Both the position numbers and the translations under genes were made by a program. A DNA stretch of 64,000 nt from Escherichia coli. Lineage in GTDB: Bacteria > Pseudomonadota > Gammaproteobacteria > Enterobacterales > Enterobacteriaceae. The stretch lies in the NCBI RefSeq assembly GCF_003018255.1, contig NZ_CP027440.1; one strand, written 5' to 3'. Shown here piece by piece: positions 1,376 to 32,398 of this stretch. A model generated the notes under the pieces. The model did no database searches, had not been told where the DNA came from, and saw only the letters and a program-made list of their open reading frames with translations. Each line of letters begins with the position of its first letter. The stretch's first letter is position 1.

Positions 1376-1738
1376 ATGCTCATAGATTTGGTTTTACCTT
1401 ACCCGCCGACGGTGAACACTTACTGGCGACGCCGTGGCAGCACATATTTTGTATCAAAAGCCGGGGAGCGTTATCGCCGGGCAGTGGCGCTTATTGTTCG
1501 CCAGCAGCGACTGAAATTAAGCCTGTCCGGACGGCTGGCAATAAAAATTATTGCAGAGCCACCGGATAAGCGCCGCCGTGACCTGGACAATATTCTGAAA
1601 GCACCGCTGGATGCGCTGACGCACGCGGGGTTGTTAATGGACGATGAGCAGTTTGATGAAATCAATATTGTACGTGGCAAGCCAGTATCTGGTGGACGGC
1701 TGGAGATAAGAATTACAGAGGTGGGTGTGCATGAATAA
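1376..1738 (+). CDS. rusA: RusA Holliday-junction resolvase
   Basis: 120 aa with RusA hallmarks (PPxxNxYxR..., DRRRRDLDNxxKAxxDALTxAG, GGRLEIxITE). It sits just before Q, as in lambdoid phages. Confidence 0.9.
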   Translation: MLIDLVLPYPPTVNTYWRRRGSTYFVSKAGERYRRAVALIVRQQRLKLSLSGRLAIKIIAEPPDKRRRDLDNILKAPLDALTHAGLLMDDEQFDEINIVRGKPVSGGRLEIRITEVGVHE

Positions 1739-2396
1739 CCAGTATTTACAGTTTGTTCGTGAGCAACTCATGATTGCCACTGCGGATCTTAGTGGGTCGA
1801 CAAAAGGCCAGCTGGAAGTCTGGCAGGAAAATGCCCTGTTCGATACAGGGCGTTACAGACGCAAAAAAATTCGTTACCGCGATGAGGTAACCGGAAAAAT
1901 GATCACGCGGGATAATCCCCCGATCCCGGGCAAACAATCACTGGCGAAAGGCTCATCAATTGCCCTGGTCAGTCCGGTTGAGTTTTCGACATCATCATGG
2001 CGACGCGCCGTTCTGTCTCTTGAAGAACATCATAAAGCCTGGCTGCTGTGGTGTTACAGCGGTAGCATTTGCTGGGAGCGTCAGATCGCGATAACGCAGT
2101 GGGCGTGGACTGAATTTAATGCTCAATCCGGTACCAGAAAAATTGCAGGAAAAACTCTGGTGCGCCTGAAGACGTTGATCTGGTTGGCGGCGCAGGCGGT
2201 AAAAGCTGAGTTTTTTGGTGGGGAAGGCTACGAATACCAGGAACTGGCGTTACTGGTGGGAGTAACAACCAAAAACTGGTCCAAGACATTTACTGGTCAC
2301 TGGGTTGCAATGAAACACATTTTTCATCGGCTGGATAGTGAAGCTTTATTGTTGGTGGAGGGAACACGTTCAAAACAAAAGGCGGCATTTTCATAG
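1731..2396 (+). CDS. late-gene antiterminator Q
   Basis: 221 aa from ATG 1731, SD GAGGTGGGTG upstream, 4-8 nt overlap with the rusA stop. Position is rusA-Q-pR'-tR'. The family call rests on synteny plus a remembered MNNQYLQFVREQL-type Q of EHEC prophages. Confidence 0.7.
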   Translation: MNNQYLQFVREQLMIATADLSGSTKGQLEVWQENALFDTGRYRRKKIRYRDEVTGKMITRDNPPIPGKQSLAKGSSIALVSPVEFSTSSWRRAVLSLEEHHKAWLLWCYSGSICWERQIAITQWAWTEFNAQSGTRKIAGKTLVRLKTLIWLAAQAVKAEFFGGEGYEYQELALLVGVTTKNWSKTFTGHWVAMKHIFHRLDSEALLLVEGTRSKQKAAFS

Positions 2397-2649: not shown

Positions 2650-3363
2650 ATGGATGACAGTGCTCTGCTCAGAAACTCTTCACTTTTTGTTGCTTATATG
2701 GGCTGTCTCGGATGGGGGAGCGCTTATTTCTATGGATGGGGTACTTCATTTTACTATGGCTTTCCATGGTGGGTTGTCGGGGCTGGTGTCGATGATGTAG
2801 CACGAAGTTTGTTTTATGCTGTGACAGTTATTGTTATATTCCTTATTGGATGGGGAGTTGGTATTGTTTTCTTTTTGGGCATAAAACAAAAGCGCAATAT
2901 ACAAAATTTGAGTTTTATCCGGCTTTTTCTCGCGATATTGCTGCTTTTTATTCCACCTGTTCTGGAGTTTTCTGTAATTCATCAGCATGTTGAGCCAGAT
3001 GTACTGATTTTCTGCGTTCTTGCTGCCTTTGCAATCACGCTTTTTGTCAGGTCTGGAAGAAGACTTGTTTCAGTCAAATGTTTTTCGGAAATGTCTGTTA
3101 TTCGCCATCACCGAATTGAGTTCATGATGGCTGGGTTTATGATTTATTTCTGGGCATTCTCTCTTATTGCCGGTTGGTACAAACCACAGTTTAAGAGGGA
3201 ATATCAGGCGGTCCACTATGAGAATGTATGGTATTACATTATTGCGCGCTATGATGATCGTCTGGTGTTATCGAAATCATACAGGAGTGGGGGTAAGAAA
3301 TTCGTTATATTTAATAGCGGAAATATTAATGATTTTGAAATTAATACTGTCAGAGTACGTTAA
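2650..3363 (+). CDS. multi-pass inner-membrane protein, unknown function (moron)
   Basis: 237 aa with about five hydrophobic Trp/Phe/Gly-rich segments followed by a ~60-aa soluble tail. AT-rich relative to neighbours. No family recognised. Confidence 0.6.
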   Translation: MDDSALLRNSSLFVAYMGCLGWGSAYFYGWGTSFYYGFPWWVVGAGVDDVARSLFYAVTVIVIFLIGWGVGIVFFLGIKQKRNIQNLSFIRLFLAILLLFIPPVLEFSVIHQHVEPDVLIFCVLAAFAITLFVRSGRRLVSVKCFSEMSVIRHHRIEFMMAGFMIYFWAFSLIAGWYKPQFKREYQAVHYENVWYYIIARYDDRLVLSKSYRSGGKKFVIFNSGNINDFEINTVRVR

Positions 3364-3884: not shown

Positions 3885-4943
3885 ATGTTTAATACTGTAA
3901 AAATATCCAGTTGTGAGTTAATCAACGCTGACTGCCTGGAATTTATCCGGTCGTTACCCGAAAATTCTGTTGACCTGATAGTCACGGACCCGCCGTACTT
4001 TAAAGTGAAGCCTGAGGGCTGGGATAACCAGTGGAAGGGCGACGATGACTACCTGAAGTGGCTGGACCTGTGTCTGGCGCAGTTCTGGCGGGTGCTGAAA
4101 CCTGCCGGAAGTCTTTACCTGTTCTGTGGCCATCGCCTGGCATCTGACATTGAAATCATGATGCGTGAACGCTTCAGTGTGCTGAACCATATTATCTGGG
4201 CAAAGCCGTCCGGACGCTGGAACGGGTGCAACAAGGAAAGCCTGCGGGCGTATTTCCCCGCCACAGAGCGCATTCTGTTCGCGGAACATTATCAGGGGCC
4301 GTATCGCCCGAAAGATGCCGGGTATGAGGCGAAGGGCAGGGCACTGAAACAGCATGTGATGGCCCCGCTGATTTCTTACTTTCGTGATGCGCGTGCTGCC
4401 CTGGGGATAACGGCAAAACAGATAGTGGATGCCACAGGAAAGAAAAACATGGTGTCGCACTGGTTCAGTGCCAGTCAGTGGCAGCTACCGAACGAAAGCG
4501 ATTATCTGAAATTACAGGCGCTGTTTGCCCGGGTGGCAGAAGAGAAGCATCAGCGGGGGGAACTGGAGAAGCCCCACCACCAGCTGCTGGAGACGTATAC
4601 TTCACTGAACCGGCAGTATGCGGAACTGCAGAGTGAATATAAGCATCTGCGGCGGTATTTTGGCGTGACGGCGCAGGTGCCGTACACGGATGTGTGGACG
4701 CATAAACCGGTGCAGTACTATCCCGGGAAACATCCGTGCGAAAAACCGGCAGAAATGCTGCAGCAGATAATCAGCGCGAGCAGTCGTCCGGGTGACCTGG
4801 TTGCAGATTTTTTCATGGGGTCGGGTTCGACAGTCAAAGCCGCGATGGCGCTGGGGCGTCGTGCAACTGGCGTTGAGCTGGAGACTGAACGTTTTGAGCA
4901 GACGGTCAGGGAAGTTCAGGATTTAGTCAGTCAGAACGGATGA
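3885..4943 (+). CDS. orphan DNA N6-adenine/N4-cytosine methyltransferase (beta-class, N6_N4_Mtase type)
   Basis: 352 aa. DPPY catalytic motif near the N-terminus (VTDPPYF) and the AdoMet motif FMGSGST near the C-terminus. No adjacent restriction gene. Confidence 0.9.
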   Translation: MFNTVKISSCELINADCLEFIRSLPENSVDLIVTDPPYFKVKPEGWDNQWKGDDDYLKWLDLCLAQFWRVLKPAGSLYLFCGHRLASDIEIMMRERFSVLNHIIWAKPSGRWNGCNKESLRAYFPATERILFAEHYQGPYRPKDAGYEAKGRALKQHVMAPLISYFRDARAALGITAKQIVDATGKKNMVSHWFSASQWQLPNESDYLKLQALFARVAEEKHQRGELEKPHHQLLETYTSLNRQYAELQSEYKHLRRYFGVTAQVPYTDVWTHKPVQYYPGKHPCEKPAEMLQQIISASSRPGDLVADFFMGSGSTVKAAMALGRRATGVELETERFEQTVREVQDLVSQNG

Positions 4944-4945
4944 TA

Positions 4946-4974
4946 TTGCAGGATTAGTTACGTACCGTTATTAT
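4946..4974 (+). promoter_or_regulatory. promoter of the phage tRNA genes
   Basis: TTGCAG, 17-bp spacer, TATTAT; ends 9 bp before the first tRNA. Confidence 0.6.
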
Positions 4975-4983
4975 CCTGCGACC

Positions 4984-5059
4984 GGCCCTTTAGCTCAGTG
5001 GTGAGAGCGAGCGACTCATAATCGCCAGGTCGCTGGTTCAAATCCAGCAAGGGCCACCA
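4984..5059 (+). tRNA. tRNA with CAU anticodon, ileX/ileZ-like (Ile2 lysidine type; Met cannot be excluded)
   Basis: Hand-folded cloverleaf: acceptor GGCCCTT/AAGGGCC, D arm GCTC..GAGC, anticodon loop CTCATAA, T arm GCTGG-TTCAAAT-CCAGC, encoded CCA. Closely resembles my recollection of E. coli ileX. Confidence 0.85.
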
Positions 5060-5068
5060 TATCACATA

Positions 5069-5145
5069 CCGCCATTAGCTCATCGGGATAGAGCGCCAGC
5101 CTTCGAAGCTGGCTGCGCGGGGTTCGAGTCCTCGATGGCGGTCCA
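5069..5145 (+). tRNA. tRNA-Arg (UCG anticodon)
   Basis: Hand-folded cloverleaf: acceptor CCGCCAT/ATGGCGG, D arm GCTC..GAGC, anticodon stem CCAGC/GCTGG with loop CTTCGAA, T loop GGTTCGAGTCC, encoded CCA. Confidence 0.8.
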
Positions 5146-5423
5146 TTATCTGCATTATGCGTTGTTGGTTCTGATGAGTGAATCATTGTCTTTTGAGCAA
5201 CAGGCTATCATATAAGATAGCCTCAGACTTCCTTGTTTATTCTCGCCGGATGCTTCGTAGATATTTGCAGGCATCTGTATGCAGGGGTATTATTGCGGCA
5301 TATATCATCCGGAAAAATAAAAACTACATGCTGATCCGGAGATGATAGTTACAAGTCCTCCCGGATCCCGCATATTTACTATATTTTATAGATAATTGTT
5401 CTTGTTAATATGGAGATGGATAA

Positions 5424-5852
5424 ATGTATTGCCGTGCTGTACCTGTTCTTGTTTTGATATTAGCCAGTCTGACAACTGGCTGCACAAAAGATGTATCGAC
5501 AAATAATCATGATGCTTCTCTGTATCACTCAGATAAATTAATAACGTCGCAAAAATTGAGCTCATCGGAACGTACCCCTGATGCCAGTGAAGAAATCCGG
5601 CAGTATGCCATTCAGGTCAGGAAAGCCATAGAAGAACAGTTAAAGGATGCGAGTAAGTATTCAGGAAAAGAGTGTTCACTGAGAATGTATATGGCCCCGA
5701 ATGGTCTTCTGCTACGGGTTAAAAGAGAAAGCGGTGATCCCGATTTATGTCGTGAAGCGATGAATGCAGTAAAGAATGCTGATATACCATCACCACCGTC
5801 TTCAGGAGTATATAAAGCATTTAGAAATGGCGTGCTGGATTTTAAACTCTGA
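5424..5852 (+). CDS. lipoprotein carrying a TolA C-terminal (domain III)-like domain
   Basis: 142 aa. Signal peptide plus lipobox LTTG|C. The C-terminal ~85 aa align with the remembered E. coli TolA C-terminus (YSGKECSLRMYMAPNGLLLRV..GDPDLCREAMNAV...PSPPSSGVYKAFRNGVLDFKL vs YAGKTCTLRIKLAPDGMLLDI..GDPALCQAALAAA...PKPPSQAVYEVFKNAPLDFKP). Confidence 0.8.
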   Translation: MYCRAVPVLVLILASLTTGCTKDVSTNNHDASLYHSDKLITSQKLSSSERTPDASEEIRQYAIQVRKAIEEQLKDASKYSGKECSLRMYMAPNGLLLRVKRESGDPDLCREAMNAVKNADIPSPPSSGVYKAFRNGVLDFKL

Positions 5853-5906
5853 CAGGGGGAGAAGATTTTCTCCTGTCCTGATGATTTTGGGGCGCTGGAA
5901 AGATAT

Positions 5907-6164
5907 TGTGCTGTGAAGTGTTAAATCCCTCACAATTCAGTAAGTTGACAGTTGCCTGTCAGACTGAGCATTTGTTAAAAAAATTTCGCATGGTGAATCC
6001 CCCTGTGCGGAGGGGCGACTGGTGAACGGTATGATCTCTTTGATGATCGTAAGCGAGAATACGCGGGTTTGGTGTCACCGGGCTGAACTCACCGGGAGGC
6101 ACCCGGCACCATGCTCATGGTGATACAGAAATGCGGCTTCAGCCCCTCTCCGGAGGGGCTTTCT
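5907..6164 (+). ncRNA. solitary copy (unit A) of the ~250-bp structured-RNA unit
   Basis: Same four conserved boxes as the 7885-8904 array. Closing stem 5988-5995 GCATGGTG / 6107-6114 CACCATGC. Terminator GCCCCTC-TCCG-GAGGGGC at 6141-6157. Confidence 0.5.
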
Positions 6165-6170
6165 TATGGA

Positions 6171-6239
6171 CAAAAAAAGCCCGCGCTGGGAGACGCGGGC
6201 GGCAAGGAATAAACAATAAAACGTGAAGTAATACTTCAA
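6171..6239 (-). ncRNA. candidate small RNA, copy 1 (promoter to intrinsic terminator)
   Basis: Minus strand: TTGCGC (6275-6270), 18-bp spacer, TATTAT (6251-6246), then ~69 nt ending in GCCCGCG-TCTCCCAG-CGCGGGC plus U7. Paralogue at 8911-8989. Confidence 0.5.
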
Positions 6240-6320
6240 CTGGCGAATAATACCCGACAGTAATCACTCTGCGCAATAGCGTGGCCTTTTTCGAATTGCG
6301 GGCTGTAGTCTCCCTTCTGC

Positions 6321-6484
6321 CGGGTGTCCTGGTTGCAGATTTCTTCATGGGGTAGGGTTCGGCAGTTAAAGCAGCGATGGTGCTGGGGCGTCGTGCAACT
6401 GGCGTTGAGCTGGATACCGGGCGTTTTGAACAGACTGCGCAGGAAATCAGGGATGTATTTAGCGGGAGCGGTTTGCAGAAGTAA
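6321..6484 (+). pseudogene. 3'-terminal remnant of a second DNA methyltransferase gene
   Basis: Nucleotide-level similarity to 4789-4943 (CCTGGTTGCAGATTT..TTCATGGGGT.GGGTTCG...GGGGCGTCGTGCAACTGGCGTTGAGCTGGA). Has an in-frame TAG (ATG GGG TAG) and lacks the 5' ~900 bp. Confidence 0.8.
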
Positions 6485-6547: not shown

Positions 6548-7273
6548 ATGGATGTTGCCTGCTCTGTGGTCCTGATTCGCTATCCGATAGATATTTTTCT
6601 TGAAAAAGAAAAAGTTTCACTCGATGCCGGAAGTGTTATGCTTGTTGCCAGAAATATAAGAGGGCTTTTCTGTGCTTATGCCGACAGAGTGAAAATGGCA
6701 GATATAAGTAACAGCGTCGTCAATCAGTATCTGGAAAGGGAGTGTGAACTGACGGAGTATACACCGACAAAAATGCCTCTTTATTTGATGTCTGATATTT
6801 ACAATACGGAACTGGCGGAGGCTTTAATAACCCAGCATAGTGAATCCAGTGATACTTTGAAGGATTTCTCTGTTATAACCGCATTTTCATGTATCTCCTT
6901 ATTTGCAACAGACAGACGTCTGCCATTATTTTTGTCCGGTGCTGTAAATAATATCAGCTGTAAAGTAAGGGCTATAATTCAGACCGACATATCGGCAGGC
7001 TGGATGCTTGGTGTGATTGCATTACAATTGCATATGAGCGAAAGCTTGTTGAAGCGAAAACTTAAGGATGAAGGTTATAGCTTTAGTCGGTTGTTGCTGG
7101 AGGAGCGAATGCGTGTTGCTGTTAATCTTGTATGTTTCCAGCGAGAGTGTGGACAAGCGATAGCGGAAAAATGTGGTTACTCAAGTAAGTCCTACTTCAT
7201 TTCTGTATTTCACCAGTATTATGGTGCACCACCTGAGAGCTATGCATATTTGCAGAAAGCAGACGTTATCTGA
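6548..7273 (+). CDS. AraC/XylS-family transcriptional regulator (prophage Psr/PatE-like)
   Basis: 241 aa. The C-terminal double HTH is typical of AraC (LLKRKLKDEGYSFSRLLLEERMRVAVNLV...IAEKCGYSSKSYFISVFHQYYGAPP). AT-rich moron. Confidence 0.8.
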   Translation: MDVACSVVLIRYPIDIFLEKEKVSLDAGSVMLVARNIRGLFCAYADRVKMADISNSVVNQYLERECELTEYTPTKMPLYLMSDIYNTELAEALITQHSESSDTLKDFSVITAFSCISLFATDRRLPLFLSGAVNNISCKVRAIIQTDISAGWMLGVIALQLHMSESLLKRKLKDEGYSFSRLLLEERMRVAVNLVCFQRECGQAIAEKCGYSSKSYFISVFHQYYGAPPESYAYLQKADVI

Positions 7274-7362: not shown

Positions 7363-7641
7363 GTGAATATTGATGAGAAAATCAGATGTAGCCAACTGTT
7401 ACAGCGTATTGAAGCCGTCAATGTGGAACGAACAAAGGTCTTCAGTCGTCTGACAGTTTTATTTTGTACCCCTGATCGACGTTCAGGTCAGGAGATGGTT
7501 CTTCTGGATGTAGATGCACTTCGGAACGTCTGTGAGGAGTTCACCGCGGCTAATTCGGAGTTACTGAGTCTTGTTCAGGAGTACAACAGAATTGCAGGTA
7601 GTAACGGTTTTGATGAAATCAAAATTATATCCCGTGGATAA
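7363..7641 (+). CDS. hypothetical protein
   Basis: 92 aa, GTG start. Followed by the CCTGTAT...ATACAGG hairpin plus T-run (7651-7680). No family recognised. Confidence 0.4.
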   Translation: MNIDEKIRCSQLLQRIEAVNVERTKVFSRLTVLFCTPDRRSGQEMVLLDVDALRNVCEEFTAANSELLSLVQEYNRIAGSNGFDEIKIISRG

Positions 7642-7884: not shown

Positions 7885-8904
7885 TGGAAATGTTAAATGA
7901 CTCACAATTCGGTTGATGGGCTATTGTCTGATCGATGGAAGTCTTGTAAAAACGAGCCAGCATAGTGAATCCCCCTGTGCGGAGGGGCGTCTGACATGGT
8001 CTCCATAGCGATGGTCACAATACGCAGATTCAGTAGTCAGGCTGAATCTACCGGGAGGCACCCGGCACTATGCTGCTTATGGTGTATACATAGCGATCGG
8101 CCCCTCTCCGGAGGGGCTTTTTTTGTGCGGGAAAAGGCTGTGTTGTTAAGTGTTAAATTCCTCACAGTTCGGATGGTTGATGCTTGCCTGTCTGAGGGGG
8201 AGTTGTTAAAAAAGTTCTGCATGGTGAATCCCCCTGTGCGGAGGGGCGACTGGTGTGATTTGCATCTTTTCTGTTGTAGGCAATGCAAACGCGGGTTCAG
8301 GGACGCCAGACTGGACTCACCGGGAGGCACCCGGCACCATGTTCATGATGATACAGATACGCAGTGTCAGCCCCTCTCCTGAGGGGCTTTTTTATGCAGG
8401 AAAAACGCTGTGTTGTGAAATGTTAAATTCCTCACAGTTCAGATGGTTGATGCTTGCCTGTCTGAGGGGGAGTTGTTAAAAAAGTTCTGCATGGTGAATC
8501 CCCCTGAGCGGAGGGGCATATCAGCGCAGGTGTTTCTACTCTATCCTTTCTGTGCGGGTTCAGGTGCTGATACTGAACTCACCGGGAGGCACCCGGCATC
8601 ATGCATATGGTTAACAGACACGTAGCGAAGCCCCTCTCCGGAGGGGCTTTTTTATGCAGGGAAAAGGCTGTGTTGTGAAATGTTAAATTCCTCACAATTC
8701 ATGAGGTTGATGATTGTCTGATTGATGAGGAGTTTGTTAAAAAAAACGGGCATGGTGAATCCCCCTGTGCGGAGGGGTGATATCGTATCATTTCCTGTGT
8801 GGCCGACTGATATCACGGACATTTGTTCACCGGGAGGCACCCGGCACCATGCAGTATACAGAGATTAGGCATACATCCAGGCTCCTCATCGCAGGAGCCT
8901 TTTT
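7885..8904 (+). repeat. tandem array of four ~240-270-bp structured-RNA units (B 7885-8124, C 8125-8393, D 8394-8653, E 8654-8904)
   Basis: Each unit has box 1 TGTTAAAT.CCTCACA(A/G)TTC, box 2 TTGTTAAAAAA..GCATGGTGAATCCCCCTGTGCGGAGGGGC, box 3 CACCGGGAGGCACCCGGCACCATG, and an intrinsic terminator with a T-run. The ORFs crossing the units differ in frame and length. Confidence 0.85.
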
Positions 8905-8910
8905 ACATGT

Positions 8911-11702: not shown

Positions 11703-11779
11703 GCATGCGTCAGGGACCATCGGTGTGTGCCGGTGGTCTTTTTTATTGTTGTGAGCTTCCGGATTGCGGGAGACGGGGT

Positions 11780-11995
11780 ATGTACCAGATGGAAAAAATC
11801 ACAACAGGTGTGTCATACACCACGTCAGCGGTGGGAACGGGCTACTGGTTCCTGCAGTTGCTGGACAGGGTTTCCCCGTCTCAGTGGGCGGCAATAGGCG
11901 TGCTGGGGAGTCTGCTGTTTGGGCTGCTGACATATCTGACGAACCTGTATTTCAAAATTAAAGAAGACCGGCGTAAGGCGGCGCGGGGAGAGTAG
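11780..11995 (+). CDS. class II holin, phage-21 S21 pinholin type, with dual-start motif
   Basis: 71 aa: [71 protein letters not shown]. Very close to the remembered S21 sequence. Met1/Met4 form the dual start. Confidence 0.9.
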
Positions 11996-11998
11996 ACG

Positions 11999-12790
11999 AT
12001 GAATAAACAATACGAACTGGTTGTTAAAGGGATAAATATTTACCCGGATAAGATTACTGTTACTGTGGCGCTGGAAACGGGTGGGTATACGTCACTGTTG
12101 TTGCCAAATGTGGTGATTGATCTTGATCGTGTTGAAGGTGCCCCGCTGGAGTTTTACGAAGCTGAGGCGAAAAAGAAGGCGAAGCAGTTTTTCATGGATA
12201 TTGCTGCCGGGTTATGTGAAGGGAACGAACCGTTGCCGGAAAAGCGCCTCTGTTCAGAAGAGCGGTATACCATACAAATTAACAATGCATATAACACGAT
12301 ACAGTCAGAAAAAGATGATATCGAATCACGCATTGAAAAACTGGAGAACAGCGTCGTTGAACTGAATAAAAAACTGTCGGTGCAGATCCCTTCCGAAGGT
12401 GAAAAAAAACGCCGTGATGAGCAGTTCGCGGCGTTTTACGATTATTGCCGGAAAGTGATGAGCAGAAATCTCGCAGAGTGTTTCCGTATTCAAAAAAACA
12501 GAGAGCGCTCTGCAAATAGTGAGATTCTGGATAATTTTTTAAAGGGGACGCATCTCGCCAGTGATTGTTTCATTGCTCATTCTTTTGGTGGCTTTCATGA
12601 GGCCATCAAACATGATGTTGAGAGAAGTCCAGGTATCCTCTGTTCCATTCCCGTAAGCATCGAAATAGACACAAATACGATAACCGGTGAACTCGTTACC
12701 GCCGGAGTCGGTATATTCCGTCATGAGGGGAACGATGCCAAAGGTTCCTTTACAAAAATCGGGCCGTTCTTTCTGAAGGTAGAGCGATAG
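11999..12790 (+). CDS. hypothetical protein with central coiled coil (cassette gene A between holin and endolysin)
   Basis: 263 aa. SD GGGAGAG; ATG lies 3 nt after the holin stop. The last 84 codons are codon-aligned antisense to gene B, so the true 3' end and function are uncertain. Confidence 0.5.
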   Translation: MNKQYELVVKGINIYPDKITVTVALETGGYTSLLLPNVVIDLDRVEGAPLEFYEAEAKKKAKQFFMDIAAGLCEGNEPLPEKRLCSEERYTIQINNAYNTIQSEKDDIESRIEKLENSVVELNKKLSVQIPSEGEKKRRDEQFAAFYDYCRKVMSRNLAECFRIQKNRERSANSEILDNFLKGTHLASDCFIAHSFGGFHEAIKHDVERSPGILCSIPVSIEIDTNTITGELVTAGVGIFRHEGNDAKGSFTKIGPFFLKVER

Positions 12791-13171
12791 TTTGTTAAGT
12801 ACCCATCCGACAGCTCGCTCATTTTGGTTTATTTTCGTATCGCGAAACAAAAATTCGAAGCGGCCAGATGACGCATGGGTGCAACCAAATACCGGGGCGT
12901 ATTCATCAACCTTTGGTGTTCCTGAAAACATGCAGTCCGTGCTCTCGAATGCAGATGAATTGCTGTTGATCCACTTAACAAAAGAAAAAAAGGTCTGAAT
13001 CGCTTGTCTGTCTGAATATTCAACAAAATCCTCAAGGTGTGTCTCGATCAGTTCCGGGTGTTTACGAAAGTCATAATATTGACCGGGACGATATTTATGA
13101 GTGGTTGTTTTATCCCATGGTTGTGCTCTGCGTCCCTGTAAACGGAGGTCTGCCGCTGGATAGATAAGCAT
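12539..13171 (-). CDS. hypothetical protein (cassette gene B, convergent with gene A)
   Basis: 210 aa from ATG 13171, with SD AGGAG 7 nt upstream (the ORF-track start 13240 lacks an RBS). No family recognised. AT-rich. Confidence 0.6.
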   Translation of the reverse strand: MLIYPAADLRLQGRRAQPWDKTTTHKYRPGQYYDFRKHPELIETHLEDFVEYSDRQAIQTFFSFVKWINSNSSAFESTDCMFSGTPKVDEYAPVFGCTHASSGRFEFLFRDTKINQNERAVGWVLNKLSLYLQKERPDFCKGTFGIVPLMTEYTDSGGNEFTGYRICVYFDAYGNGTEDTWTSLNIMFDGLMKATKRMSNETITGEMRPL

Positions 13172-13301
13172 AAGTAATCTCCTGGTGGAATGTAATCCAC
13201 GATCATCCGGGGAAATTAAGAACCCGCCAGTGCCCACCACTGGTGGGGTGAAGGCTTAACATATCCAGGGATTCGGAACCGATAAATCCTGATAAATATC
13301 C

Positions 13302-13835
13302 ATGAACACCAAAATCAAATACGGCCTGTCGGCTGCCGTTCTGGCGCTGATTGCCGCAGGGGCGCCTGCGCCTGATATTCTCGACCAGTTTCTGGATGAA
13401 AAAGAAGGTAACCACACCACGGCATACCGTGATGGTGCGGGTATCTGGACCATTTGTCGTGGTGCCACCAGGGTGGATGGCAAACCTGTCGTCCCGGGCA
13501 TGAAGTTGTCGAAGAAAAAATGCGACCAGGTTAACGCCATTGAGCGTGATAAGGCGCTGGCATGGGTGGAGAAAAACATCAAAGTGCCACTGACTGAACC
13601 CCAGAAAGCGGGTATTGCGTCATTCTGTCCTTACAACATTGGCCCCGGTAAGTGTTTCAGCTCAACGTTTTACCGGAAACTGAACGCCGGAGACCGTAAA
13701 GGCGCATGTGCTGAAATTCGTCGCTGGATATATGACGGTGGTCAGGACTGCCGTATTCGTTCAAACAACTGTTACGGTCAGGTATCCCGTCGTGACCAGG
13801 AGAGCGCGCTGGCGTGCTGGGGAATCGACAGATAA
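13302..13835 (+). CDS. SAR endolysin (GH24 T4-lysozyme family, phage-21 R type)
   Basis: 177 aa. N-terminal signal-anchor-release segment GLSAAVLALIAAGAPA. Catalytic E-x8-D-x5-T in EGNHTTAYRDGAGIWT. Matches a pinholin partner. Confidence 0.9.
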   Translation: MNTKIKYGLSAAVLALIAAGAPAPDILDQFLDEKEGNHTTAYRDGAGIWTICRGATRVDGKPVVPGMKLSKKKCDQVNAIERDKALAWVEKNIKVPLTEPQKAGIASFCPYNIGPGKCFSSTFYRKLNAGDRKGACAEIRRWIYDGGQDCRIRSNNCYGQVSRRDQESALACWGIDR

Positions 13836-14108
13836 GCAGAATATTTTGCTGAAAAATGATGTTGGCCAACGCGGGTGGATAACACGAAATCCTGCGAACT
13901 GGCAAAACCTAAGTGAATAAAGTCAGGAACATTGTTTCACGCAGAGGCACCGTAATGGTGCCTTTGTCATTTCTGCGCTTCGCACAAGCGTAAATAAACC
14001 AAAGAACCTTTCAGGATGAGCCCTGGTGGATAACCGGCAGTGGTCTGGTTAACCCTCTTTGGGCTGGTTATTCCTGTGCGCAGGGTTCATTACTAAAAGG
14101 AATCAACC

Positions 14109-14804
14109 ATGAAAGAGATGATTTCTGTCGATCATGAAATATCCATGAGTAGTCTGGATTTTCTGAATAACATTATTAATCCAGCCCGGGCAGAAGCCGG
14201 AGAAGTCCCTCATGAACCGCGTAAGTTTCTTGCAAAAATTGAGGATGAACTTGAGCTTGATGGAACCGGAAAAAAATTCCGGTTAAACAATAACCAGACA
14301 AGAACGGCATACTATGATCTGGATTTTGACCAGATGATGCTCGTTGGCATGAGGGAGTCAAAGGCCGTTCGTCGTTCTGTGCTGGCAAGACTCAAAGCGA
14401 TGCATGGTATTCAGATCCCCCGGACTTTACCTGAGGCGTTGCGATTTGCGGCAAAACTGGCAGAACAGAAAGCAGTGCTGGAAAATCAACTGGCAATAGC
14501 AGCGCCGAAGGCTGAATTTGTTGATAACTATGTTGAAGCATCTGGTCTGATGGGATTCCGGGAAGTTGCTAAGTTACTCGGTATCAAAGAAACCGATTTC
14601 CGGCTGTTTTTGTTGGAGAACGGAATAATGTATCGCCTCGCTGGAAAAATGACGCCTTACTCGCATCACCTGGATGCGGGGCGGTTTAGCGTGAAAACGG
14701 GCGAGGCGGGCAATGGTCATGCTTTTACGCAGGTTAAATTCACCCCAAAAGGTGTTCAGTGGATTGCTGGTCTGCTTGCTGCATGGAGAGCTACCGCAGC
14801 ATGA
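14109..14804 (+). CDS. antirepressor-like protein (KilAC/Ant C-terminal domain) inserted between R and Rz
   Basis: 231 aa. The C-terminal half (AAPKAEFVDNYVEASGLMGFREVAKLLGIKETDFRLFLLENGIMYR) is KilAC-like. Stx-type phages carry an Ant-like gene at this position. Confidence 0.7.
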   Translation: MKEMISVDHEISMSSLDFLNNIINPARAEAGEVPHEPRKFLAKIEDELELDGTGKKFRLNNNQTRTAYYDLDFDQMMLVGMRESKAVRRSVLARLKAMHGIQIPRTLPEALRFAAKLAEQKAVLENQLAIAAPKAEFVDNYVEASGLMGFREVAKLLGIKETDFRLFLLENGIMYRLAGKMTPYSHHLDAGRFSVKTGEAGNGHAFTQVKFTPKGVQWIAGLLAAWRATAA

Positions 14805-14896
14805 AGATGATAAAAATGGACTGGAAATTTTTGCTGGTCTGGCTGATTCCGTTTTTATGGGTGGTTGCCCGGTTAATTACTGCTATTAAGGGGTAA
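14801..14896 (+). CDS. 31-aa hydrophobic micro-ORF
   Basis: Read by hand: [35 protein letters not shown] overlap with the ant stop. Confidence 0.3.
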
Positions 14897-14898
14897 AG

Positions 14899-15030
14899 AT
14901 GTCAGACAAACTCATAACGCTGGCGAAGGGCCTTTGTGTAATCGTCGGTATTTCATTTTCACTAATGCTGGTTGTTCTTTTTCTTTCCATAACCTGGATG
15001 GCGTTGACTTCGGCAGGGCTGGTGGGGTGA
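14899..15030 (+). CDS. 43-aa hydrophobic micro-ORF
   Basis: Read by hand: [43 protein letters not shown]. Its stop overlaps the Rz GTG start (GTGA). Confidence 0.3.
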
Positions 15031-15500
15031 GCATAAACCGAATGCTTTCCGCGTTTACCGTTATTCTGCTGGTGGTCTGTGGTGCGCTTAGTCTGGGGCT
15101 GAATCATTACCGCGATAACGCCATCACCTACAAAGCGCAGCGCGATAAAAAAGCCAGAGAGCTGGAGCTGGCAAACGCAACCATTACTGATATGCAGGTG
15201 CGCCAGCGCGATGTTGCTGCGCTCGATGCAAAATACTCGAGGGAATTAGCCGATGCGAGAGCTGAAAATGAAACTCTGCGCGCTGATGTTGCCGCTGGTC
15301 GTAAGCGCCTGCGGATCAACGCCACCTGCTCCGGTACCGTGCGTGAAGCCACCGGCACCTCCGGCGTGGGCAATGATGCCGCCGTCGAACTCTCTCCGGT
15401 TGCTGGACGAAACGTTCTCGGTATCAGAGACGGAATCATCAGCGACCAGGCTGCATTGAGAATGCTTCAGGAATATATTCGCACTCAGTGTATTAACTAG
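15027..15500 (+). CDS. Rz i-spanin
   Basis: GTG start chosen by alignment to remembered lambda Rz (…[42 protein letters not shown]). N-terminal TM helix. Confidence 0.85.
15253..15459 (+). CDS. Rz1 o-spanin lipoprotein, embedded in the +1 frame of Rz
   Basis: [20 protein letters not shown]... with lipobox VSA|C and the proline-rich [10 protein letters not shown], as in lambda Rz1. Confidence 0.85.
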
Positions 15501-15748: not shown

Positions 15749-16086
15749 GCGACCTTATTATCCATGCGCGGTATTGTCGCCGTATTCCCGTATTAACAGA
15801 GACCGCAGCCCGACAGGGAGACTCCTCTGCGCGAGTGTGCGGGGATAATCAAAAACGATACACACCGGGGTTTACCGCGTTAACGGAGCGCGGCGTTGTC
15901 CCCTCATGGTCGCTGGTCCGGTGCGATGGTGGAAGAAACCGGACGATGTGTTACCTCGCAAGACCTGTTATGTCATGTGTCTGATTTGTGATTTAAGTCG
16001 GATAATTGTCGTTGCCATTAAGCAGAGGATTGATGGCCGACAGGGTGGCATTGTTAGAATAAGACTTATTCTTATCTGTGCCGGGA

Positions 16087-16419
16087 ATGAAAATGAAAAG
16101 AAATCTTCCGTTAATTATTTTGTTGTCTTCTCTGGTTATGGGCTGTACGCAACATAAAACAGATATGCCCCGACAGTTGGTTAAGGCATTACCACAATAT
16201 CCGGCCTATGCAGCGGCAAATTATATAAAGGGACGGGTTGATGTGAAGTTTGATATTGGTGCTGATGGTACTGTCACCCGAATTGAGTTTATCCGTTCAG
16301 AGCCGCACCATCTGTTTGATGAGCAGGTTGTAAAGGCGATGGCAAAATGGCGATTTGAGAAGGACAGGCCGCGTAAAGGCGTGAAGAAAACGTTTATCTT
16401 TAGTCCTTCTGCACCCTGA
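16087..16419 (+). CDS. lipoprotein carrying a TonB C-terminal-like domain
   Basis: Signal peptide plus lipobox LVMG|C. LPQYPAYAAANYIKGRVDVKFDIGADGTVTRIEFIRSEPHHLFDEQVVKAMAKWRFE matches the remembered TonB C-terminal pattern [56 protein letters not shown]. Confidence 0.8.
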   Translation: MKMKRNLPLIILLSSLVMGCTQHKTDMPRQLVKALPQYPAYAAANYIKGRVDVKFDIGADGTVTRIEFIRSEPHHLFDEQVVKAMAKWRFEKDRPRKGVKKTFIFSPSAP

Positions 16420-31234: not shown

Positions 31235-32398
31235 ATGAAAAAAATGACAGTGGCACTTTCTGCTGTAGCAGTTGCAGTGATGTTTGCTGCGGGGGCGCAG
31301 GCAGCAGAAGTTTATAATAAAGATGGTAATAAACTGGATCTTTACGGGCGTGCAACCGCTCTGCATTACTTCTCGGATGATAAAGGTAATGACGGAGATC
31401 AGACTTATGCTCGTCTCGGCTTTAAAGGCGAAACGCAGATTAATGATCAACTGACCGGATTTGGTCAGTGGGAATACCAGTTCTCTGGTAACAAAACGGA
31501 ATCTGAAGGTTCCGCGGGAAATAAAACCCGTCTGGCATTTGCAGGTCTGAGATTTGCTGATGTTGGTAGCATTGATTACGGACGTAACTACGGTATTGCT
31601 TACGATGTCGGATCATATACTGACGTACTGCCAGAGTTTGGTGGTGATGGCTGGACTCAGACCGATAACTTTATGACTGCCCGAACTTCCGGAGTTCTGA
31701 CTTACCGTAATACAGATTTCTTTGGGCTGGTTGATGGTCTGAATTTTGCGGCGCAGTATCAGGGCAAAAATGAGCGCGATGACCTCCAGAAGGCCAATGG
31801 TGATGGGTATGGTTTCTCAGCCAGCTATGAGTTTGATGGTTTTGGTTTTGTGGCTGCGTATACCAAGTCAGATCGTACCAATAAGCAGGTTCAGGGACTG
31901 AATGGTAGCAAAACTATTGAAATCAAAGATCCTTTAACTGGGGATGTGACTGAAAAAGAAGTGGTCGTTGATTCCGGCAGCGTTGCAAAAGGTAAACATG
32001 CTGAATTCTGGGGAACTGGTCTTAAATATGATGCCAATAACCTGTATCTGGCAGCAGTGTATTCAGAAACCCAGAATATGACGACCTTTGGTGATCAAGG
32101 TGTTGCGGATAAAGCTCAGAATATCGAAGCCGTTGTTCAGTATCAGTTTGATTTTGGTCTGCGTCCGTCTCTGGCCTACCTTCAGTCCCGAGGACAGGAT
32201 GTTATGGTTGGTGGTGTGAACCATGGCGATCAGGATCTGGTTAAATATATTGATGTCGGTGCGACTTATTACTTTAACAAGAATATGTCCACCCATGTTG
32301 ATTATAAAATTAACCTGATTGAGGAAAGTGAATTTACCCGGAAAGCCGGTGTTGCGACAGATAATATCGTTGCTGTGGGTATGACTTATCAGTTCTGA
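31235..32398 (+). CDS. general-diffusion porin of the OmpC/OmpF/PhoE/NmpC family
   Basis: 387 aa. Signal peptide ...AQA|[15 protein letters not shown], then [21 protein letters not shown], and the C-terminal ...VAVGMTYQF typical of enterobacterial porins. Confidence 0.9.

Follow-up and report, generated by a model that had tools for sequence, protein, structure and literature searches.

A TolA domain III lipoprotein in the Shiga toxin slot of an Escherichia coli prophage, a candidate decoy of the Tol import hub

The known systems nearest to the gene reported here are laboratory constructs of TolA domain III (TolAIII) or of the TonB C-terminal domain (CTD), the exclusion lipoproteins Cor, Llp and TraT, and g3p-mediated exclusion. 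Cor (of phi80, N15 and the mEp phages), Llp (of T5) and the plasmid protein TraT are small outer-membrane lipoproteins encoded by accessory genes of mobile elements, and they work at the envelope to keep later invaders out. The target of Cor and Llp is the surface receptor FhuA, which they inactivate, and neither of the two copies a host protein. Export of TolAIII was reportedly found by Levengood-Freyermuth et al. in 1993 to give colicin-tolerant cells, and periplasmic constructs in that work and in that of Howard in 2001 are said to have conferred colicin or phage tolerance and to have inhibited TonB-dependent transport; Boeke, Model & Zinder in 1982 reportedly saw periplasmic g3p N1 occupy TolA and so make cells tolerant to Ff phage and group A colicins. 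Here we describe a prophage gene for a lipoprotein with a TolA C-terminal (TolA_C) domain, found in a window of 64,000 nucleotides from Escherichia coli (contig NZ_CP027440.1; "the window" means this whole stretch), where it stands in the slot that the Shiga toxin genes stxA2B2 occupy in phage 933W.

TolAIII and the TonB CTD share a fold and are hubs for group A and group B colicins respectively, and for several phages (PMC7391070, PMC4339652). TolB, colicin N (ColN) and g3p-N1 bind TolAIII by strand addition at beta3, colicin A (ColA) binds beta2 on the other face, and a single proline at D418 or K420 abolishes binding at beta3; affinities for TolAIII are about 1 µM for ColN and g3p and 40-200 µM for TolB (PMC4339652, PMC7391070). 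E. coli cells that export TolAIII by means of a signal sequence become leaky (Wan & Baneyx 1998, as cited in PMC6195910).

The gene begins with an ATG, with GGAG 9 nt before it, and runs for 142 codons. A sequence-only reading of this DNA had taken the product to be a lipobox protein with LTTGC at the cleavage site, and this was upheld: residues 16-20 fit the PROSITE-type rule, they are preceded by the hydrophobic run VPVLVLILAS, and the signal peptide thus ends in a lipobox ([LVI][ASTVI][GAS]C) as in other lipoproteins. The residue at +2 is Thr and that at +3 is Lys, and by the +2 rule the protein is predicted to be sorted to the outer membrane. The lipobox Cys is retained in at least 90% of the aligned relatives, among which the tether that follows it differs in length and in sequence.

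Beyond the tether, residues 52-140 match TolA_C (PF06519) in Pfam with an E-value of 1.1e-22 and 80.5 bits (cut-off 25), and residues 54-141 align with residues 333-420 of E. coli TolA in a phmmer search of the PDB (E of about 3e-25; 1s62, 3qdp, 1tol and 9k49). With a score above gathering, the TolAIII fold and the invariant C84 and C109, the domain belongs in the TolA_C family. Identity to TolA 333-421 is 45 of 89 residues (51%), both Cys included, and the terminal VYxxFxNxxLDFK motif is common to the prophage protein and TolA (VYKAFRNGVLDFKL versus VYEVFKNAPLDFKP), so that the close C-terminal likeness to TolA claimed from the letters alone was borne out. The beta3 residues L417, D418, F419 and K420 are identical in the prophage protein, and P416 is replaced by Val with no proline introduced. 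A single-sequence structure model compared with TolAIII at a template modelling score (TMt) of 0.76-0.82, and an AlphaFold2 (AF2) model from a 34-sequence family alignment gave a predicted local distance difference test (pLDDT) score of 84-97 across the domain. The comparison with TolA-III structures that the sequence-only reading had proposed came out in its favour, as the AF2 domain superposes on 2x9a_B (TolAIII from the g3p complex) with a root-mean-square deviation of 0.6 Å over 85 columns (TMt 0.93) and on 1tol at 0.7 Å, and Foldseek gave a probability of 1.00 for the TolAIII fold with TMt up to 0.93. Sequence matching and modelling together confirm the 142-residue protein as a predicted lipoprotein carrying a well-folded copy of TolA domain III. 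The features of the gene and its surroundings are collected in Table 1.

Table 1. Coordinates in the window of the TolA_C lipoprotein gene, its parts and the prophage features discussed in the text
Feature	Position	Strand	Remarks
TolA_C lipoprotein gene, prophage type 1	5424..5852	+	142 amino acids (aa); Pfam, PDB and PHROGs matches; 'tolA' in the Prokaryotic Genome Annotation Pipeline (PGAP), WP_000271628.1
Signal peptide with lipobox	5424..5483	+	MYCRAVPVLVLILASLTTG followed by C20; Thr at +2
Disordered tether of ~33 residues (21-53)	5484..5582	+	pLDDT <50 at residues 25-49
TolAIII-fold domain (residues 54-142)	5583..5849	+	disulfide pair C84/C109; C-terminal beta3 strand VLDFKL
Low-GC cassette	5167..5929	+	763 bp; in place of 933W argO+stxA2B2; boundaries from blastn
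Antiterminator Q gene	1731..2396	+	PGAP 'bacteriophage antitermination protein Q'
DNA methyltransferase gene	3885..4943		open reading frame (ORF) and PGAP
tRNA-Ile2/Met(CAU), ileZ equivalent	4984-5059	+	ARAGORN, Rfam; PGAP tRNA-Ile
tRNA-Arg(UCG), argN equivalent	5069-5145	+	ARAGORN, Rfam; PGAP tRNA-Arg
Lysis cassette, downstream of the TolA_C gene	11705..15500	+	ORFs and PGAP names
Holin	11780-11995	+	PGAP
Endolysin	13302-13835	+	PGAP
Rz	14934-15500	+	PGAP; embedded Rz1 at 15253-15459, lipobox LVVSAC
TonB C-terminal-domain lipoprotein gene	16078..16419	+	lipobox LVMGC, cleavage before Cys; Thr at +2

RefSeq and PGAP name the product 'cell envelope integrity protein TolA' because its C-terminal domain alone passes the cut-off of the TIGR02794 equivalog (75.9 bits versus 59.45, covering only model positions 262-361 of 362); it scores 102 bits against the cut-off of 213 for PRK09510, covering only positions 298-386 of 387, and the TIGR02794 effect was the same in every TolA_C relative tested. 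We rejected an identity as TolA. Domain I, with the SHLS motif and the coupling to TolQ-TolR, is absent and a lipoprotein signal peptide stands in its place; the Ala/Lys-rich helical domain II is absent too, the whole protein having 142 residues with a disordered linker at 21-53; and the neighbours are Q, the methyltransferase, tRNAs, NanS-p and holin and not ybgC-tolQRA-tolB-pal-cpoB. Judged by its sequence, therefore, the name is an over-annotation and the prophage protein is no TolA orthologue. The misnaming is systematic, with TolA_C-only lipoproteins of 120-160 aa being called 'TolA' or 'colicin import membrane protein'.

Comparison with phage 933W placed the gene where the sequence-only reading had put it, in the cargo position equivalent to stx, after Q, the methylase and two phage tRNAs. 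Positions 4833-5166 are 96.4% identical (blastn) to the 933W stretch running through ileZ and argN, and positions 5930-6114 match 933W from 46 bp beyond stxB2 onwards; with both flanks matching 933W, the cassette between them exactly replaces argO, the terminator and stxA2B2. The proportion of guanine and cytosine (GC) is 0.42 in the ORF and 0.38 in the leader upstream of it, against 0.52 for the whole window, and an extra gene of deviant GC between identical phage flanks, absent from 933W, is what defines a moron. The insertion site of the prophage in the closest complete genome is ydfJ. A habit of using rare codons is known for stx, and phage tRNAs serve such codons; in the TolA_C ORF, AUA makes up four of six Ile codons, and AGA or AGG four of nine Arg codons.

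The prophage carries a partner for this protein. A lipoprotein with a TonB C-terminal domain had also been reported from the letters alone, and we found it likewise (Table 1), with a match to PF03544 at E=5.8e-15 and to TonB CTD structures at E of ~3e-16. Of 5426 complete E. coli genomes 414 have it, and so do 4 of the 5 type-1 viral loci that extend past the lysis cassette. PHROGs files this protein under 'lysis / Rz-like spanin'. The spanin label was rejected, as the protein has the TonB_C fold and no C-terminal transmembrane segment and the prophage has its own Rz/Rz1, and is probably a positional annotation.

The two domains are also joined elsewhere. Two clusters of fusion lipoproteins, P0051 (235 aa) and P0109 (209 aa), have TonB_C followed by TolA_C, and the context of each was obtained by exact-sequence look-up: P0109 belongs to the nin region of a Citrobacter freundii lambdoid prophage (WP_213354707.1, L085 8001-8630) and P0051 just after a phage-type N6/N4 methyltransferase (L084 1856-2563). 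Scans of IMG/VR with both fusion proteins gave no match. On a 10-kb ColRNAI plasmid of Klebsiella pneumoniae (NZ_CP053877.1) the two domains are encoded by a gene pair overlapping by 4 bp (L098 5451-6184, minus strand), one gene for a TolA_C lipoprotein of 123 aa with the lipobox LLTAC and the other for a TonB_C protein of 121 aa with a signal peptide, and the pair is divergent from genes for a colicin-like tRNase bacteriocin, its immunity and its release (lysis). The same TolA_C/TonB_C match occurs on many Klebsiella plasmids of 10-12 kb. Shared prophage, fusion and adjacent genes make three independent links between TolA_C and TonB_C, whose common property is to be the periplasmic hubs that colicins and phages exploit. 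This repeated pairing of TolA_C with TonB_C is hard to explain by Tol-Pal physiology alone.

Full-length copies of the exact allele of the window occur in 122 of the 5426 complete E. coli genomes, and many of these are Shiga toxin-producing E. coli (STEC) that are bovine or lack the locus of enterocyte effacement (LEE-negative). A second type-1 allele, carried by phage mEp460, encodes a protein 67% identical whose signal peptide differs but still has the Cys, and the two alleles together are found in 887 of the 5426 genomes (~16%), 882 of them at 80% coverage or more. Relatives were found on 125 viral contigs in IMG/VR, and among GenBank phages only in mEp460_ev081. The ratio of nonsynonymous to synonymous substitution (dN/dS) between the window and mEp460 alleles is 0.30 in the domain and 0.35 overall, which indicates from the sequences that the gene is under purifying selection.

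A type-2 TolA_C lipoprotein of 131 aa (lipobox VAGC; PF06519 at E=1e-14; C-terminus GFDMRG instead of LDFK) is encoded directly downstream of the type-1 gene in prophages of the mEp460 type (mEp460_ev081, L002 6512-6907). It is 88% identical to the product of an unnamed ORF adjoining nikB on pO157 Sakai (L099 4815-5246), and occurs on 606 plasmids, F-like ones such as pO157 included, and in 1268 of the 5426 E. coli genomes (~23%). When 1.84 billion cluster representatives were searched exhaustively with HMMER, 303 matched at E<=0.001. The best 149 representatives of 50%-identity clusters that rank after the cluster of the query include 62 long proteins, which are true TolA, and 71 proteins of 105-175 aa; a strict lipobox is present in at least 46 of these 71 and an obvious one in about 6 more, a few have plain signal peptides, and none of the short members has Asp at +2. 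Cluster member names trace the family to Serratia, Kosakonia, Scandinavium, Citrobacter, Klebsiella, Enterobacter and Escherichia, and its PHROGs entry is phrog_5772, 'unknown function'. Further members lie in a VapE/T5orf172 element (P0086), beside icd and dinI in Kosakonia (P0053), on large Klebsiella plasmids (P0099) and at a syntenic chromosomal locus in Scandinavium-like genomes (P0052, P0060). By sequence, the TolA_C lipoproteins thus form an Enterobacterales-wide family on prophages, F-like plasmids and bacteriocin plasmids.

We tentatively propose, with a confidence that stops just short of even, that the TolA_C lipoprotein is an outer-membrane-tethered periplasmic decoy of the TolA hook that titrates Tol-dependent invaders; from the evidence above we infer its localisation, ligand binding, protective phenotype and time of expression. 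Sec export, lipidation of Cys20 and Lol sorting would leave the TolAIII domain hanging under the outer membrane on its tether, in the zone where colicin translocation domains, g3p-N1 and the N-terminus of TolB emerge. As the protein has only an export and lipidation signal and a tether, with neither TolA domain I nor domain II, energy transduction would be impossible and binding alone would be left to it. Such a decoy would have no coupling to TolQR, and ligands adding a strand to VLDFK of beta3 (or to beta2, for those of the colicin A type) would be trapped unproductively and not pulled in. Cells that carry it would be expected to show a Tol-type tolerance of group A colicins and Ff-like phages and to pay for it with a degree of interference with Tol-Pal, and the gap in affinity between invaders and TolB might allow a modest dose of decoy to protect without crippling Tol-Pal. 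The TonB_C lipoprotein would have the same role for TonB boxes, and thus act on group B colicins and the TonB-dependent phages T1 and phi80. The comparative evidence, namely the kept export signals, the TolA_C-TonB_C fusions, the Klebsiella plasmid pair and the dN/dS of ~0.3, favours a decoy, and the diversification into type 1 and type 2 on mobile elements is as expected for a defence trait. The sequence-only reading had suggested that the protein might serve as a decoy to exclude colicins or Ff phages, or else modulate vesicles, and the exported TolAIII of the laboratory is a precedent for the former.

Several points weigh against this proposal, and the most direct concern expression. All 80 viral loci have the TolA_C gene within the late operon, on the late strand and upstream of holin, and the order of Q, TolA_C and holin is unbroken in all of these loci that have such neighbours, the position of Q being judged where Q falls inside the fetched stretch. 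By analogy with lambdoid phages, a late transcript starting after Q would run through the cassette to the lysis genes. A scan for promoter consensus upstream of the gene found one weak site (5264-5293), not above the expectation from shuffled sequence, and an alignment of the upstream regions of the two type-1 alleles showed these to be unrelated with only ad hoc -10-like motifs. No terminator was found directly after the TolA_C stop codon, the first terminator-like sites being at 6141-6200, in or after an element resembling the STnc100 small RNA (sRNA). Since protection by a decoy would need expression in the lysogen, the late-operon position and the lack of a promoter above chance count against it. 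The protein chemistry raises a further doubt: Y352 of TolA is implicated in TolB binding (PMC2707214), and the prophage alleles have Lys or Gly at the corresponding position, so they may accept another range of ligands than TolA does. This replacement is also a weak hint of a preference for invaders over TolB; if a decoy bound the N-terminus of TolB as well, the cell would bear the cost of a tol phenotype. PADLOC (PADLOC-DB 2.0) returned no match for the TolA_C or the TonB_C lipoprotein, and some family members stand in a chromosomal, non-mobile context (Scandinavium), so defence need not be the sole role.

The late position would suit a protein that serves the phage at the end of its cycle. 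As a Q-dependent late product like stx, it might flood the periplasm during lytic growth, titrate the TolB N-terminus and switch Tol-Pal off while the TonB_C lipoprotein turned Ton off. A looser outer membrane and more vesicles would follow, and would help lysis or the release of progeny and cargo. This accords with a Q-to-holin position that holds throughout the 80 viral loci, with a TonB_C gene that follows closely on the lysis cassette, with the want of a convincing promoter of its own for the TolA_C gene, and with the enrichment of AUA and AGA/AGG codons that match the phage tRNAs just upstream, as for stx; yet the prophage already has holin, endolysin and Rz/Rz1, the Citrobacter fusion is in the early nin region outside the late operon, and homologues on F-like plasmids and at chromosomal loci have no lysis context. 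Other points cut both ways. On the Klebsiella plasmid a bacteriocin release (lysis) gene adjoins the pair, but the pair is transcribed divergently from the bacteriocin operon, and the PHROGs placement of the TonB_C protein in the 'lysis / Rz-like spanin' family is offset by the probably positional origin of that label and by the absence of spanin features from the protein. Exported TolAIII does cause leakiness (PMC6195910). On balance we think this sabotage of the envelope unlikely, though it deserves to be kept in view.

Less probable still, in our judgement, is that the lipoprotein tunes Tol-Pal in the lysogen (affecting vesicles, serum or bile resistance, or Pal at the division site) in the spirit of Bor and Iss, without blocking invaders. 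A predicted outer-membrane lipoprotein encoded by a low-GC moron could do this, tuning of the TolB interaction could regulate vesicle production (PMC7391070), and the syntenic chromosomal relatives in Scandinavium-like genomes suggest that a housekeeping-type role is possible; however, the repeated pairing and fusion with TonB_C and the association with bacteriocin plasmids would be left unexplained, and there is no sequence relation to Bor or Iss. That the gene is non-functional debris, a passive fragment of tolA picked up by a phage and mis-called as a gene, seems very improbable. Annotation pipelines do label it simply 'TolA', and the databases hold frameshifted or truncated variants (P0019-P0038), but a lipoprotein signal peptide has been acquired in two versions with the Cys in both, dN/dS between the alleles is ~0.3, the full-length gene is intact in about 880 of 5426 E. 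coli genomes, and a diverse family keeps one architecture; at only 51% identity to host TolA, it is therefore no recent capture.

Returning to the decoy proposal, a broader form of it can be stated, which we hold a little more loosely. Copies of the TolA and TonB C-terminal domains on prophages, F-like plasmids and bacteriocin plasmids of Enterobacterales could together be import-hub decoys, a previously unrecognised kind of envelope defence that would leave about a fifth of E. coli tolerant. Members of such a class would be exported and mostly lipid-anchored, would occur single, paired or fused, and would soak up the Tol and Ton boxes of arriving colicins and phages on the inner side of the outer membrane; the tolerance would be broad and receptor-independent, and the stx slot would in this case hold a shield instead of a toxin. 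If the decoy proposal is true, mobile genes mislabelled 'TolA' or 'TonB family protein' would in part shape the colicin and phage sensitivity of many E. coli (~16% with type 1, ~23% with type 2), and the many Klebsiella plasmids that carry relatives come into the same account. It would then matter to therapies that turn bacteriocins or phages on STEC and Klebsiella, to bacterial competition in the gut of cattle and humans, and to the question of how Tol-Pal and Ton can be tuned from outside their operons, and would offer a natural case of a mobile element that shields its host by copying the very domain which makes that host vulnerable. Were the late-lysis explanation true instead, the Shiga toxin slot would hold a new accessory layer of lambdoid lysis or cargo release. 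Under either, the TolA annotation needs correcting. Our full-text search of the literature, in which subscription journals were thinly covered so that an older mention is possible, for example in a paper on a plasmid sequence, turned up no work on TolA_C lipoproteins encoded by prophages or plasmids, and a 2020 review of Tol-Pal makes no mention of such lipoproteins (PMC7391070).

The surroundings of the gene hold further accessory elements. Five matches to Rfam RF02076 (STnc100 sRNA) score 119-172 bits on the plus strand (5959-6171, 7931-8126, 8190-8399, 8460-8659 and 8721-8910), one directly 3' of the TolA_C gene and four in tandem before nanS-p with a period of ~260-270 bp. A single STnc100-like copy lies just 3' of stxB2 in 933W, and in mEp460 the element is upstream of the TolA_C gene; the copies may act as recombination joints for cargo exchange, and may belong to the prophage anti-sRNA family AsxR/AgvB. 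A duplicate of the methyltransferase 3' end and tRNA leader lies at ~6320-6484 (plus strand), where PGAP calls a partial methyltransferase pseudogene; positions 6365-6435 and 4833-4903 match one and the same 933W segment, and the duplicate resembles a scar left by the insertion of cargo modules. The stretch from the TolA_C gene to nanS-p also holds a gene for an AraC-family regulator (HTH_18/HTH_AraC; 6548-7273, plus strand, GC 0.41), which we take to be possibly related to PatE or Psr of enterohaemorrhagic E. coli (EHEC). A 92-aa ORF of phrog_2873, a family of unknown function (7363-7641, plus strand; no signal peptide), neighbours TolA_C genes in both prophage types, being downstream in the window and upstream in loci of the mEp460 type.

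Directly after Q, at 2650-3363 on the plus strand (GC 0.40), a 237-aa multi-pass membrane protein of phrog_1521 (unknown function) is encoded, for which Pfam gave no match. Between holin and endolysin lie an ORF at 11999-12790 (plus strand; 263 aa, with an N-terminal DUF1327), frameshifted in the annotation of the matching genome, and one at 12539-13240 (minus strand; 233 aa) with no family match. An OmpC-like porin gene (31235-32398, plus strand; 387 aa) stands between the tape-measure/tail protein genes and that for minor tail protein L, and PGAP names its counterpart in the matching genome 'porin OmpC'; with the TolA_C and TonB_C lipoproteins, it brings the envelope-altering accessory genes of the prophage to three.

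Set beside the stxAB cargo of 933W, the TolA_C cassette is alike in its identical slot, with ileZ-argN upstream and an STnc100-like element downstream, in its late-operon setting and in its rare-codon bias; it differs in that the protein and its function are unrelated, in that the cassette has 763 bp as opposed to ~1.4 kb, and in that argO is missing. With TolA domain III itself (1TOL, 1S62, 3QDP/3QDR, 2X9A) the protein shares the fold, 51% identity, the disulfide pair and the LDFK of beta3. Unlike TolA, it combines a lipoprotein signal peptide with a short, disordered tether and lacks domains I and II, is encoded in the late region of a prophage and not in the tol-pal operon, and does not keep the Tyr implicated in TolB binding. 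The laboratory constructs of periplasmic TolAIII or TonB CTD are likewise isolated hub domains without the energy-coupling parts, but they are soluble, overexpressed and artificial, whereas the prophage protein is natural, is predicted to be lipid-anchored at the outer membrane, has diverged to 51% identity and is under selection on mobile elements.

Like Cor, Llp and TraT, the prophage protein is a small lipoprotein of a mobile element for which an action in the envelope is proposed. Its Pfam matches are to TolA and TonB_2 only, with no sequence relation to those three, and, in contrast to Cor and Llp, it copies a host import hub and would act one step later, on the Tol box. Exclusion mediated by g3p involves the same interaction between TolAIII and g3p-N1 and is its mirror image: there the ligand blocks the hub, whereas here a spare hub would soak up the ligand.

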